Made by a program: the position numbers | In this document: positions 6,001 to 12,000 of the stretch, one piece after another | Position numbering within the stretch: the stretch's first letter is position 1 | Layout of the letters: the number at the start of each line of letters is the position of its first letter | Origin: a virus | Lineage: Duplodnaviria; Heunggongvirae; Uroviricota; Caudoviricetes | Direction: 5' to 3' (one strand) | Virus record (IMG/VR): IMGVR_UViG_2548876950_000019 | Length of the DNA: 12,246 nt

Positions 6001-9000
6001 TTTAAAGCCTGTAAAACAAGACAATGGCTGCGCTCAAAAGCAGAACTGGCATACTTCTTCTACTCATGATATCCAGCCACAAACCTCTGTAGACCGCCAT
6101 CCGGCGGTCTTTTCATATCTATTCGCACCTTAAAGGTAATAAAAAACCAAATCTGGTTGATCTTTTTTTTGTGTCAGCACAAAATAACCGTAATCCCAAT
6201 ACTAATAACAGGGCTTACCATGGAAATCATTACACGTATTGATGCCGCAAAGCGCGGACTTAAACGCTACTACACCGGAAAATCATGTAAGCACGGACAT
6301 GACAGTGAACGCTGGGTTTACAACGGACACTGTGTTGAGTGCACCATGGAATCAAACCGTCGCATCAGGGCAGAGATTAAGCAGATCATGATTAATTCCT
6401 CCCCACAACATTCAAGCTGATAGCGGAGATTAATCATGAGCAGACATGCAACAGATTGGGCCTGGGAGACAGACCCAGGTAGCTCATCATTAAAGCTCAT
6501 ACTGCTCTCGATGGCTGACAGAGCCGATGAATATAACCTCTGCTACCCCAGCATAGAACGCCTCGTTAAAGACACTTGCCTGAATAAAAAAACCGTGCAG
6601 TCCGGGCTTATATCGCTCATGAAAATGGGGCTTATTTCAGATACCGGAGAGAGAAAGGGAGCGACGAAAAGAGTGCGGGTTTTCTCTCTTAATATAACCA
6701 AAAACGGGAACATTAAAGGCAACCGGGAAGGGTGTAATGAACCCGAAAACGGTAATGTTCCCGAAAACGGGAATATACCCAAAAACGGGATGTTGAATGA
6801 TCCCAAAAACGGGATGTTGAATGATCCCAAAAACGGGATCCAGAACCAGTCATATAACCAGTCATTTAACCAAGAGAGGGAGAGCAGGACAAAAACCGGG
6901 GATTCTGTGCCTCATGACCCCGGCGCAAACAACGCCGTGATGAATAACTTTGTTCCTCCTGGTGGGCCAGGGCAATTAGGCAAATTTGTCATGCATGAAC
7001 AATGGCAACCATCAGATGACTTTCTTCGGAAAAGCTCATTGCAGGGAATCTACCTGGACAGTCTGCCAACGGCACAGGAACTTGCAGAATTCAGAATTTA
7101 CTGGATGGCTGAGGGTAAGGCATACCATCAGGCACAGTGGGAGCAGAAGCTGGCAAGGCGGCTGCAGATTAGCAGACAGAAGCAATCAACATTACCTGAT
7201 AACAACGTTCCGCACTGGAACAGCCCTGAAGCGTGGGAGGATTTCTTGTGAACAACGTTTTTACCGCGATACAAAACCGTGACGGAGAAGCCCTTTCTCG
7301 CATGTCAGGTTATGAGCATCAGTACGTCAACAATGACAATGTGGTGAACATGTCAGCAGAGAGGCTTGTTGATGCCCTTTTCAAACAGCTGAAACAACTG
7401 TTTCCGGCGGCAGTGGTAACCAACCTGAAGACGCCAGAGCAGGAAGTCGCTGCAAAACAGCAGTGGATTGCTGCGTTTGCCGAAGGTGGGATCCGAACCC
7501 GTGAACAGGTTTCTGCTGGTATGCGCCACGCCCGCGCCAGTGAATCTCCGTTCTGGCCGTCGCCTGGGCAATTTATCAAGTGGTGCAAAGACAGCAAGAT
7601 GGTTCTTGGTGTCACCATTGACGATGTGATGGCGGAGTTTCACCGGTACAGCAAGGAAAAAAGTTTATATCCTGGCGGTCCCGAAAGATTCCCGTGGCGG
7701 CATCCGGTTATGTACTGGGTTGTATGTGATACCCGCCGCGCAATGTATCAGCGCCAGCTTAGCGAGATTGAGGTTGAGAAACACGCGCGCAGGTTGCTCG
7801 ATGATTGGGCGAAAAAGGTGGCTTCCGGACAGCAGATACCCGATCCGGTGATCAGCATACAGGCAAAGCCAGAACCCATGAGTACGCCTCCGGACACAGG
7901 GAGAGACGTTTACCACCCGCCAGGGCGAAGTTTCGGGTGCATGCCTAACGCCGCCACCCTGGGTGGAATAACACCGGCACAGTGGCTGATGGAGGAATAC
8001 AGGCGGGGAAAGGCGGCAGGATTTATCAAGTAATACCAGCGCGATAGCGCATTTTTTTACGTCTAGATGATTACCTGGTGGGTAATAAAATATACTAAAA
8101 TCTATTGATTTCGTGTCTTATGTGGTTTTTAATTACCTCGGGGGTAAATCATGAGAAAACAGATACAGGCTCTTGGTCGACTCAAAACAGGCCAGATGAA
8201 CAAAACAGAATCTGCGTATTGCCAGCACCTTGAGCAGCGTAAACGTGCAGGGGAAATCGCCTGGTATCGATTCGAGGGTCTCAAGCTGCGGTTAGCTGAC
8301 AACACGTTCTATACGCCCGATTTTGCTGTGATGCTCGCCACCGGCGAGATGGAACTGCACGAAGTGAAAGGTTTCTGGACCGACGACGCCAGGGTGAAAA
8401 CCAAAGTCGCCGCAGATCAATATCCGTTCCGAATCATCGGGGTAACGGTTAAACCAAAGAAAGCAGGTGGTGGCTGGAACATCGAAGAGTTCTGAATCGA
8501 CGATCTTTTTAGTTATCAATGTAATCAATAAGTTATGTGGATAAGCGAGGGTAAAGATGGAAAGTAATATCAAAGGGTTAGTTTCCGCCGGGCATGAGAT
8601 GGCTTCGGAACTGAAAGCAGAATGTGGTGCCGTTGATATGCGTAGTGTGGCAAAGCTGATCAGCGATTTGGCAACGCAACTGGAAGTGCAACTGGTGCGT
8701 GCTAATGCGCTGGCCGAAGACCAGCAGAAAGCGATTGAGTCAATTAAGCAGGCTGATGCAGCTGTTAAGTTGGCACACGAGAAGTTTTCAGCGCTGGCGG
8801 CGGAGAATGCGGGGCTGAAGTCTGGCGCTATGGACGAAATCAAGGTTATCAACCGTGGAGGGCAGGCATATTGCGTAAAAGATGGAGTGCAAGTCAATCC
8901 CATGTATGCAAGAGGGTGGAATGACTATCGCGCAAAGTCTCTGCAATCAGACACCCCAGCCACCGACGCTTTCCTGGCTGAAGTACGAGCGCAGGGCGTG

Positions 9001-12000
9001 GAGATGTTTGCTGAGTGCGCATACACACTTGAACATCATGATCACGCAGTAGCCTTCGCCGCTGAGCTTCGCAAAGGAGGCAACCAGTGAGTAATTCAGC
9101 ACGACTACAGCTTGGTTTTTCACCGCTATCAAAAACTATCATGCTGGCAAAAATGCGCGATGTTGAAGGTGGACGTATGCGCGTTGGCAATGATCCAGGT
9201 CGTGATGTTACCAATGAGGCTGCTCAATTGGTGTGGCGACTGGTCATGGCTGAAGGTGGTGAGATCGCGTGGGAGCTGGATGATGGTTCTCGCATGGTGT
9301 TGAAGGCAGAAAAGCAGGAGGCAACCAGTGAGCAAGATTGACTATCAGGCACTGCGAGAGGCGGCAGAGGTCGCGAAGGAGGAGACGACGTGGCAGAACC
9401 TACAGGCTTTTCATGCTGCGGCTACGCCGGAGGTTGTACTGGCATTGCTTGATGTATTGGACGCATCACTGGAAGCAGAGCCAGTTATGTTCTGTATATC
9501 AGGACAAAATGTAGATTCAGAAGAACATGTATCAACCAGCAAAGCGGTTGTTGATGCCTGGGTTGAAGAATGGAATCAGGTTGACGGAAGTCCTGGCGCC
9601 CCCCTGTACAAAACTATGCCACTCTACTGTCACGCTGCCTTGCCAGTACCTGTAGTGCCTGAAGGACTGGTTAAAGCGGTGCGTTTTTATGAGCAGGTAA
9701 AAAATGAGAATCCGCCAGTTGGGACTGGTGCGTGGAAAGACGCTGTTGACTGGGTGCTCGAAGAAGCTTGCCTGGCTGTAAATATAGGCATCAAAGGAGA
9801 GTGATATGACAACTTTGACAAAAAAAGAACGGGCATGGTTGAACGACTTACAGGACGTTCTTGATCGCTGTCCATCGCCGAAAAAAATTGGCTTTTACAC
9901 CATTGGCGATAAAAACATTTACCTGTATGACCTACGCCGCATGGATGAAATCATGGAGGCTCTTGATAATCGTTCGTCAATGGATTGGTGTGCTGCTGTT
10001 CATGATATGAATGCCGGATTTGATGAAACGATTTTATTCCCCTCGTCAGTTGAAAGCACTGCGGGTTAAGGAGTAACACATGACCACTTTTACCGACAAA
10101 GAACTGATTAAAGAAATCAAAGAGCGCATAGGCAGCCTGGACGTGCGAGACAATATTGAGCGTCGTGCTTATGAAATTGCTCTGGCGTCGCTGGAAGCAG
10201 AGCCGGTTGCAGTAAACGACGACATGGCATACGCATTCCATCACGCATTGTCAGATTCATCGCTAGGCGCTGATGAAGTAGAGGAAATTAAGGCCGGTTT
10301 GCGTGCTGCCTTTGCCAACGTCACTATCCAACCAGAGCCGGTAGTGCCGGATGAAATCGAGTTAGCAATTGAAAATCTCAAGCAGAAGTTAGTGGAATGC
10401 AATCGCTATAACTACTGCGCAGATGCAGTGAAGAACGTAGAGGATGCCTGCCGTGCTGTTAGCTATAGCCAAGCCGACAATCAGCCAGCATCTGGCAACC
10501 AGGCTGCCGAATCCAATCGCGGTAATGAGTGGACTGGCAATCCTGATATTGATAACGCCATCATCATGCTCGACCGCATAGATACGCTGGAAAATTGCGA
10601 TGATGACCGTATTGAGGCTGTTAAGGCTGTTTTGCGTAGACTGGCTGGCAACTCTCCGGTAACTCCGGATGGTTGGATAAGCTGTAGTGAGCGAATGCCT
10701 GAAAAGGGCCAGAACGTGCTTATTTCGGTGAATTTCGATAGCTCTCTGGTTGAACCGCTAATATGCTCCGCACGCTATACCGGAAGCACCTTTCGGCGCG
10801 GAGATGTAACGATTAAGCCGGGTAATGGTATTGAGCAAGCAACTCACTGGATGCCGCTACCGAAACCGCCGCAGGAGGTAAACCGTGGCTAACTTGCAAC
10901 TTGCCGTTAAAGGTGAATACTTCGCAGATAGTTTCCCCCAAATCTGGGGAAAAGCCCGAATGGCGCGGCTTACAGCAAGATAAGGCCTACATGATTTGAC
11001 AAATCCGCATTAACGGGGCTATATTCCGCTTCATGGTGCTGAACACACCTTGCAAAGCGGAAACCGCACCCGTCAGTCATGCGGCTTTTTTATGTCCATT
11101 TCTCAGATATGGTCGGGTAGCGCGTATACCGAAAAACAACCGAAAGGTTAAGGATACGGGCCGACTTTGCACGGTGTTCAAGTACCTGACCGCCCTGCTG
11201 AACACAGGGCTATCTGAACAAATGCAAAGGGCATAAAAATGACCAGTCAACTCATCCCCGTATTCAACGGCACTATCGCCAACGAAACCACTCTTCTCGT
11301 TAATGCTCGCGATTTACATACTTTTCTTGGGGTAGGTAAACGCTTTGCATCGTGGATTACAGAACGCATTGCTGAATATGGTTTCGTTGAAAATCAGGAC
11401 TATATTTTGGTTTCCCCAAATCGGGAAATCAAAGGTCGAGGAGGCGATCGCCGTAGCAAAGACTATCACCTCACCCTCGATACAGCCAAAGAAACTGCGA
11501 TGGTGGAGCGCAACGAAAAAGGCCGCCAGATACGCCGATACTTCATCGAGTGCGAAAAGAAACTTCGCAGCATGCAACCAGCGCAGCAATTCACAGACGA
11601 GGAAATCATCCTCCTCTGCTACATGCAGGTACAGATGGAGAATGCACAGGACATCTGCAAACACCTGTACCCGATAATGAAGGAACTTAACTCATCATAC
11701 GCGAGCAAGCTGTATGACATCGCGTTTGAAACCTTCTACGCGGTGACGAAAAACAGAGACGCACTTCTCAGGGAGGCAACACGAATTGACCAGACAAGCG
11801 CCATTTTCGAACGGGCAAGACCAATGTTAAAAAGCCTTCGGGCGAGACAATTCGAATTTTAATATCAAAGGAGCTTCGGCTCCTTTTTTTACAGGTGAAA
11901 CTTAATGAAATTCAAAGTCAGAGGTGAATGGAATGGAGAGCCATTCAACAGAGTTATCGAAGCGGAGAACATCAACGACTGCTACGACCACTGGATGCTG

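Follow-up and report, generated by a model that had tools for sequence, protein, structure and literature searches.

What does a run of five tightly packed genes at the distal end of a phage early operon amount to, one concerted system or a set of independent genes? The question is raised by a 12,246-nucleotide (nt) stretch of DNA from a virus assigned to the Caudoviricetes (IMG/VR record IMGVR_UViG_2548876950_000019), which was analysed as a whole and is called the window here, positions being counted from its first letter. Between 8557 and 10892 the window carries five open reading frames (ORF1 to ORF5), which an earlier note on this DNA had put forward as one cassette and as the best candidate for an undescribed system. 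The comparisons described below make it very probable that this region is an accessory slot of variable content, placed distally in the early operon and occupied by ea-type genes that act independently and do not constitute a system. The array combines known gene families in a new way and represents no new kind of system and no new family. The slot genes and the backbone gene ahead of them are as follows.

8151-8495, plus strand: DUF1064 (Holliday-junction-resolvase-like) gene, the final conserved backbone gene ahead of the variable slot
8557-9090, plus strand: ORF1, 177 amino acids, superfamily of P22 EaE and HK446 gp27 (Oad2)
9087-9341, plus strand: ORF2, 84 amino acids, DUF7446, an optional 241-base-pair (bp) cassette between the junctions J1 and J2
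9328-9804, plus strand: ORF3, 158 amino acids, similar to lambda Ea22 and P22 EaD
9806-10069, plus strand: ORF4, 87 amino acids, phrog_1714, a small alpha/beta protein outside the Pfam families
10080-10892, plus strand: ORF5, 270 amino acids, similar to P22 EaA, with a C-terminal DUF551 domain
10671-10874, plus strand: DUF551 domain of ORF5 (residues 198-265), a predicted small all-beta domain

The most direct evidence comes from the distribution of the five genes, which show no conserved co-occurrence. At least 80% of 8040-10900 in one place was found in none of 5,426 complete E. coli genomes and in none of 50,697 phage records, the top coverage in these searches being 61%. The same holds for IMG/VR, where loci with at least 3 kilobases (kb) on each side of the anchor gene were counted among the best 80 matches per anchor: loci anchored on ORF4 contain ORF2 in 3 of 38 cases, a full ORF3 in 1 of 38 and a full-length ORF5-like gene in 5 of 38, while loci anchored on ORF2 contain ORF4 in 6 of 57. 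ORF1 to ORF4 occur together on two contigs only, on which the counterpart of ORF5 is 60% identical. Counts for each gene in the complete E. coli genomes, where full-length means that a single place holds 80% or more of the gene, differ widely.

ORF1: full-length in 14 genomes, any match in 1,050
ORF2: full-length in 167 genomes, any match in 175
ORF3: full-length in 11 genomes, any match in 753
ORF4: full-length in 976 genomes, any match in 977
ORF5: full-length in 1 genome, any match in 3,307

As judged from these DNA matches, ORF2 and ORF4 are inherited whole, and ORF1, ORF3 and ORF5 are mosaic within the gene. Homologues of ORF4 are also found in a P22-like prophage of Kluyvera, in a lambdoid prophage of Edwardsiella and in P2-like prophages of Pectobacterium, in the last directly behind gpA, a replication gene, and with no Ea22 or DUF551 gene nearby. 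At the level of such comparisons the five genes are thus shown to assort independently.

The slot itself has a recognizable place in related phages. The window is a temperate-phage early region comprising integrase, MT-A70 methylase, PerC, RecT, PD-(D/E)XK nuclease and repressor genes together with a cro-like gene, a DnaT-like O protein, P and DUF1064, and an equivalent backbone is present in Uetakevirus phages and prophages (PAS61, TL-2011b, E. coli prophages). The DUF1064 gene (Pfam DUF1064, 31 bits; phrog_190, E 2e-42) stands at the equivalent position in L001, L162, TL-2011b and PAS61. In those relatives the slot behind it holds a different set of five to nine small genes each time, followed by the terminase genes.

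The five ORFs with overlapping or near-abutting boundaries and AGGAG-type ribosome sites that had been described earlier are all seen in the sequence at the coordinates listed above. An AGGAG-core ribosome site lies 5-7 nt 5' of every start from ORF1 to ORF5. ORF1 and ORF2 meet in a GTGA, in which the start overlaps the stop, with AAGGAGG 6 nt before the start; ORF2 and ORF3 overlap by 14 nt (AGGAGG, 6 nt before the start), ORF3 and ORF4 are separated by 1 nt (AAGGAG, 6 nt before the start), and the 10-nt gap between ORF4 and ORF5 is accompanied by an AAGGAG that spans the stop codon. Packing and ribosome sites fit translational coupling in an early operon; the further proposal that the five genes are co-translated as one unit derives from their spacing. 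Between 7900 and 10995 no promoter-like or terminator-like sites above chance were found, which fits read-through from the early right promoter. We infer that the slot genes are expressed by read-through and translational coupling: transcription from the early right promoter would pass through cro, the O-like and P genes and DUF1064 into the slot, where each gene would be translated via a ribosome site embedded in the final codons of the preceding gene. A terminator-like hairpin at 9468-9485 was set aside, as it coincides with hinge-coding sequence inside ORF3 and the number of such sites in the region does not exceed that in shuffled sequences. Two antisense ORFs, at 8292-8903 and 9951-10244, were likewise not accepted as genes; they have no family match and overlap well-supported genes.

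How the slot is rebuilt can be read from two kinds of short repeat, a junction between genes and a hinge within them.

9075-9094, plus strand: junction copy J1, AGGAGGCAACCAGTGAGTAA, with the ORF2 ribosome site and GTG start over the ORF1 TGA stop
9316-9335, plus strand: junction copy J2, AGGAGGCAACCAGTGAGCAA, with the ORF3 ribosome site and GTG start
10873-10981, plus strand: third junction copy, AGGAGGTAAACCGTGGCTAA, and a coupled 31-codon ORF (GTG at 10886 to 10981)
9463-9486, plus strand: hinge copy 1, inside ORF3
10185-10208, plus strand: hinge copy 2, inside ORF5

J2 is 95% identical to J1 and lies 241 nt further downstream (direct repeat family D1), with AGGAGGCAACCAGTGAG forming an exact 17-nt repeat at 9075 and 9316; the third copy, at 10873, is weaker (75% identical to J1). 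The junction, AGGAGGCAACCAGTGA, is 16-20 nt long, consists of ribosome site, GTG start and TGA stop, and joins different neighbours across phages. Among 174 fetched loci, 88 contain its 16-nt core. One of these is HK446, where the core closes oad2 at the 3' end and leads (L166 22449-22511, minus strand) into an unannotated 20-codon remnant of an Ea22-type N-terminus, VSKIDYQALREIAKHQRLTE, and then a stop. Across 96 distinct IMG/VR contexts the junction pairs at least four combinations of partners.

EaE/Oad2-like to DUF7446: 10 contexts
EaE/Oad2-like to Ea22-like: at least 10 contexts
DUF2737/orf56-like to DUF7446: 22 contexts
DUF7446 to Ea22-like: 38 contexts

Since the junction is present on both flanks of ORF2, this gene behaves as a 241-bp cassette that can be inserted and deleted, and EaE-like genes that are joined straight to Ea22-like genes elsewhere provide the empty sites to compare with the occupied ones. 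The 31-codon ORF at the third copy overlaps the ORF5 stop in like manner and has its own AGGAGG. It is found at 87% amino-acid identity in L041 and L085, between a DUF551 gene and antA, and its 5' end is similar to the start of the ASCH gene in L001.

The hinge is a 24-nt repeat (D4) with 88% identity between its copies, in frame in ORF3 and ORF5, and encodes ASLEAEPV. The 14-mer CTGGAAGCAGAGCC occurs exactly twice in the window, at 9469 and 10191 (expected 0.01; two matches in none of 200 shuffles). The view taken earlier that this shared module is a point of shuffling is borne out by chimeras in relatives. In L162, an E. coli prophage, 99.6% identity from 3016 onwards stops exactly at 9485 and is followed by a different DUF551 tail; L011 encodes residues 1-41 of ORF5, residues 52-112 of ORF3 and another tail, and L068 encodes residues 1-44 of ORF5 and 42 unrelated residues. 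A plain deletion between the two hinge copies was rejected as the origin of the L162 gene, as its DUF551 tail is a different one. High-identity high-scoring segment pairs (HSPs) ending at 10200-10219 number 32, and hot spots of HSP starts and ends were found at 9070-9079, 9310-9319, 9350-9369, 9780-9809, 10110-10119 and 10200-10219; match ends thus accumulate at the junctions and the hinge.

Aligned in this way, the relatives show an array that is rebuilt by homologous recombination at short conserved joints, namely the junction and the hinge. Given these joints, small single-domain genes move whole and large genes become chimeric. Exchange at the junction swaps neighbours and inserts or deletes ORF2, and the hinge lets N-terminal modules join many C-terminal domains. 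Module boundaries at conserved junction sequences have reportedly been described for lambdoid phages; our literature search on linker sequences in lambdoid mosaics yielded nothing usable.

Family assignments support the reading as a collection of known genes. The Ea22-like and DUF551 labels given to the region earlier are correct, both passing the Pfam thresholds, but the statement that none of the five could be assigned has to be revised: each of the five proteins has a known Pfam or PHROG family, and three correspond to named ea genes of P22 and lambda. Scans of the five proteins against PADLOC gave nothing better than E 0.02 at 11 bits and those against NCBIfam gave noise only, while the PDB, searched by sequence with each protein and with profiles for the families of ORF1, ORF4 and ORF5, returned nothing below E 0.05. 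BLASTP among ORF1, ORF3 and ORF5 detected no paralogy except the 8-residue hinge, their kinship being visible only via shared PHROG profiles.

The best functional lead is ORF1, which we regard as a putative Oad2-like anti-defence protein. HK446 gp27 has been named Oad2 and binds and inhibits the P2 OLD abortive-infection nuclease; it is described as related to P22 EaE and as sometimes fused to EaD/Ea22 (bioRxiv 10.64898/2026.07.10.737580, a preprint of July 2026). ORF1 has no Pfam family match. With BLASTP it aligns to Oad2 at 28% identity over ORF1 residues 14-177 (E 3.5e-10) and to P22 EaE with E 2e-5, and the ORF1 family profile matches Oad2 in hhalign with 97.9% probability (E 4e-13, 114 aligned columns). 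Six PHROGs are common to ORF1 and Oad2 (phrog_614, 492, 368, 14548, 10746 and 26126). The top PHROG of ORF1 is phrog_492 (E 5e-54), followed by phrog_614 (E 3e-33), and that of Oad2 and EaE is phrog_614, so the closest subfamily of ORF1 is not that of Oad2. Both proteins are in the same length class (177 and 175 amino acids) and share the same motifs, which in ORF1 are SALAAENAGLKS and TPATDAFLAEVRAQ and accompany a helical N-terminal half; both also end in LRKGGNQ, which is followed by identical junction DNA. In contrast, the segments between the shared motifs are unrelated. ORF1 most likely would bind and block an OLD-like or other immune nuclease, by analogy with Oad2. The OLD target itself is not transferable to ORF1, because Oad2 specificity is narrow and a homologue with 54% identity already lacks activity on OLD (bioRxiv 10.64898/2026.07.10.737580). 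The ORF1 family comprises at least 7,684 database proteins and is very large in E. coli; none of its 120 best members bears a functional name.

ORF2 matches Pfam DUF7446 (PF24233) with 67.1 bits against a threshold of 24.1, its residues 7-79 covering model positions 2-70 of 70, and phrog_1578 with E 9e-34; a literature search on DUF7446 yielded no paper.

ORF3 matches Pfam Ead_Ea22 (PF13935) with 39.1 bits (threshold 27) over residues 2-70, a match that spans just positions 1-101 of the 139 in the model, and is 48-50% identical to lambda Ea22 residues 1-42. It starts with an Ea22 N-terminal module (residues 1-53) and the hinge, continues with a C-terminal domain that has no relation to the lambda one and ends in KGE. 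Published descriptions present Ea22 as mosaic, combining an N-terminal region and a coiled coil with a C-terminal domain that varies (one variant carries DUF551), and as a tetrameric protein of the exo-xis region in lambda and Stx phages that favours lysogeny (PMC10834534, PMC7093339). ORF3 shares with it the N-terminal segment and the K-G-E end, and the combination of a common N-terminus with variable C-terminal domains, one of them DUF551, is the pattern of ORF3 and ORF5. ORF3 differs in that it is shorter, lies in another operon and has a C-terminal domain without similarity to the solved lambda domain (no PDB match). By analogy, ORF3 probably acts as an oligomeric Ea22-type factor that biases the phage towards lysogeny.

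The C-terminus of ORF3, ...NIGIKGE, carries the K/R-G-E tripeptide that ends all Ea22 proteins and has been called unexplained (PMC7093339). The DNA ATCAAAGGAGAGTGA stands at the end of ORF3 and, without a difference, at the 3' end of lambda ea22. In the window the KGE is encoded (9793-9808) by AAAGGAGAG, and this is also the Shine-Dalgarno sequence for the gene that follows, with its ATG at 9806; lambda ea22 (L163 1048-1062) ends in the identical ATCAAAGGAGAGTGA, yet no coupled gene follows there. The LRKGGNQ end of the EaE/Oad2-type proteins likewise encodes AAGGAGG. The conserved C-termini of Ea22 and EaE/Oad2-type proteins may simply be junction DNA, and a simple reading of the K/R-G-E end of Ea22 would be the Shine-Dalgarno sequence of a downstream gene.

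ORF4 has phrog_1714 as its sole family. Its 118 relatives, where a source is named, all come from Enterobacterales, and none of the 118 has a functional name. The model of ORF4 contains a confidently folded domain without a solved structural neighbour. The starts of ORF4 and ORF5 are alike (MTTLTKKE and MTTFTDKE; 9806-9830 and 10080-10104), and the ORF3/ORF4 junction DNA is 88% identical to the junction between an Ea22-like gene and ORF5 in L176. By way of this second linker, ORF4 may have entered between a gene of Ea22 type and one of EaA type.

ORF5 opens with an N-terminal module (residues 1-43) and the hinge; a variable middle follows, and the C-terminal DUF551 domain matches Pfam DUF551 (PF04448) with 78.4 bits (threshold 22) over residues 198-265. 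It shares phrog_60 with P22 EaA, to which BLASTP gives E 3.5e-13, and some of its relatives carry the name 'Eaa protein'. Its AlphaFold model has a mean predicted local distance difference test (pLDDT) score of 49.8 and is confident only in DUF551, with strands within 212-259 at pLDDT 72-89; Foldseek of this model against the PDB gave nothing below E 1. ORF5 would thus present a DUF551 domain on an exchangeable N-terminal module. A DUF551 protein with a described role is YfdS of the cryptic E. coli prophage CPS-53, which together with YfdQ and YfdR helps to suppress replication over-initiation and whose loss causes H2O2 sensitivity (PMC4776307), but only the domain of about 68 amino acids is common to YfdS and ORF5.

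The closest known counterpart of the whole array is the set of ea genes in the early-left operon of P22. ORF1 is a homologue of EaE, ORF3 of EaD/Ea22 and ORF5 of EaA, and the three stand in the same relative order, the packing is equally tight, and P22 EaA also contains the hinge motif (IALASLDAETV) together with a C-terminal DUF551. The window genes, however, end the early-right operon after Uetakevirus-like replication genes, whereas those of P22 are flanked by the recombination genes on one side and xis/int on the other; the two arrays also hold unrelated small genes (DUF7446 and phrog_1714 in the window, orf45, EaF and EaI in P22), and the C-terminal domains differ. In its working only, as a gene run past the replication genes that is reached by read-through from the early right promoter, the slot resembles the lambda nin region (ren to ninI, between P and Q). 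That region is reportedly made up of small, non-essential, coupled genes that are highly mosaic between lambdoid phages. Yet the five window proteins have no Nin family match, NinX and ASCH follow the slot in relatives only, and no Q antiterminator comes after the slot, the relatives running into terminase genes instead.

The particular array in the window has a hybrid origin, with its join inside ORF5.

10080-10375, plus strand: crossover interval between two prophage backbones, preceded by the right arm of a Uetakevirus-like prophage and followed by the left (PL) arm of a lambdoid one

Window positions 3806-10375 show 2 differences from L002, a Uetakevirus-like prophage contig (99.97% identity); over 10376-10454 there are 7 further mismatches, after which homology is lost. 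From 10080 to 12246 the window equals L176 at 2167 of 2167 positions, and L176 continues with xis, int and torS. Since the match to L002 runs through 10375 and the identity to L176 starts at 10080, the switch lies within 10080-10375. The exact ORF5 protein is found on one contig only, AIBK01000414.1 of the draft GCA_000446745.2, which is 100% identical to window positions 80-12246 and ends 2 nt past the window end; in the sole complete genome that carries ORF5, the gene belongs to a different phage type and operon. By alignment, the array is shown to be a one-off product of a Uetakevirus-like prophage and a lambdoid left arm, with the caveat that a single draft contig is the source for ORF4 lying next to the full ORF5.

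The draft contig might also be an assembly chimera of two co-resident prophages, bridged across the 296-bp identical stretch 10080-10375, which we consider somewhat unlikely. A chimera would agree with an exact ORF5 protein on a single draft contig that ends 2 nt past the window, with a left part that is 99.97% Uetakevirus-like and a right part that is 100% lambdoid left arm ending in xis-int-torS, and with the absence past the join of the terminase genes expected of the left-hand prophage. However, the order ORF4, EaA-like gene, small ORF and antA recurs in L041 at 55-87% identity, assemblers break at repeats more often than they bridge them, and recombination of co-resident prophages at shared modules is common and matches the remaining data. 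The idea from which we started, that the five genes form one co-adapted multi-protein system for defence, exclusion or host takeover, appears extremely improbable. Tight packing, stop/start overlaps, uniform ribosome sites and a place in the early operon, where such functions are common, had spoken for it. Yet the same packing is seen in every gene pair of the operon and in all junction partners, ORF4 occurs in unrelated contexts, ORF5 derives from another prophage type, and PADLOC found no match. Above all, the genes lack conserved co-occurrence at both the DNA and the protein level, and their independent assortment largely refutes the claim of a single five-gene cassette.

A smaller unit, in which an Ea22-type gene, a small gene and an EaA/DUF551 gene work as a functional triad like eaD-eaI-eaA of P22 and the small protein partners or regulates its neighbours, is improbable as well. 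The family-level order does parallel that of P22, an Ead_Ea22-type gene lies directly 5' of ORF4 in Edwardsiella and two genes upstream of it in Kluyvera, and partial ORF3-like and ORF5-like matches lie within 3.5 kb in 23 of the 38 ORF4-anchored loci. But Ea22- and DUF551-type genes are so common, ORF5 DNA matching in 3,307 of the 5,426 genomes, that such proximity is expected by chance. Moreover, P22 EaI (phrog_8222) is unrelated to ORF4 (phrog_1714), the P2-like ORF4 of Pectobacterium follows gpA with neither partner gene nearby, and L176 has an Ea22-like gene immediately next to ORF5, without an ORF4 in between. Rather doubtful, too, is a bolder extension in which the slot is an anti-defence island swapped via universal linkers among Uetakevirus-like, lambdoid, P22-like and P2-like phages. 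In that case ORF1 would inhibit in the manner of Oad2 but with a new specificity, for instance for another OLD-family ATPase-TOPRIM nuclease, and ORF2 and ORF4 would be new single-protein inhibitors of host immunity or other host functions. Of the earlier suggestion that the region is an anti-defence site, one concrete lead is left, the homology of ORF1 to Oad2, set against the lack of a match in PADLOC.

We therefore retain the reading of the region as a variable slot of independently acting genes, in which, judging from the relatives, each protein would act by itself, early after infection or induction, on a target of the host or of its defences. Several points weigh against it. Protein functions are predicted from relatives, the identity between ORF1 and Oad2 is just 28% with different top PHROGs (492 and 614), and translational coupling is deduced from spacing only. 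The IMG/VR loci, being the best 80 matches per anchor, are close relatives and partly redundant. Finally, the order EaE-like, Ea22/EaD-like, small gene, EaA-like parallels eaE-eaD-eaI-eaA of P22, which leaves room for some functional linkage between neighbours.

Outside the slot, further features were observed on both sides. Inside the DnaT-like O gene, 6734-6872 contains tandem repeats (18 nt, 3.1 copies; 24 nt, 2.6 copies at 100% identity; 12 nt, 2.4 copies), which probably are origin iterons as in the lambda O gene. Downstream, 10996-11862 forms an immunity-I-like antirepressor module that is common in Stx phages (91-94% identity). It contains a near-consensus promoter (TTGACA-18-TATATT at 10996-11025), a hairpin with a T-run at about 11060-11095, a match to the Rfam family sRNA-Xcc1 (RF02221; 11111-11199, 69 bits, gathering score 53) and, after this match, an AntA/P22AR_C antirepressor gene at 11239-11862. 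An RNA of this family directly 5' of an antirepressor resembles c4/ant of P1. A RyhB-like Rfam match at 5054-5112 on the minus strand (24.5 bits, gathering score 55, E 0.64) coincides with the terminator hairpin downstream of the repressor and is almost certainly due to chance, and a preprint on the Pas small RNA proved unrelated.

For the study of such phages, the idea of a candidate undescribed system in this region does not hold up, and follow-up effort is saved. The hybrid contig is also a caution that gene neighbourhoods on draft prophage contigs may be hybrids of two prophages. In place of a five-gene system, the grouping of ORF1 and its large E. coli family with Oad2 provides a specific and cheap hypothesis, and ORF4 (976 of 5,426 complete E. 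coli genomes) and ORF2 (167) are whole-gene cassettes suited to anti-defence screens. Junctions made of ribosome site, start and stop, together with a hinge inside the genes, serve as recombination joints and give a clear view of how this region is rebuilt.

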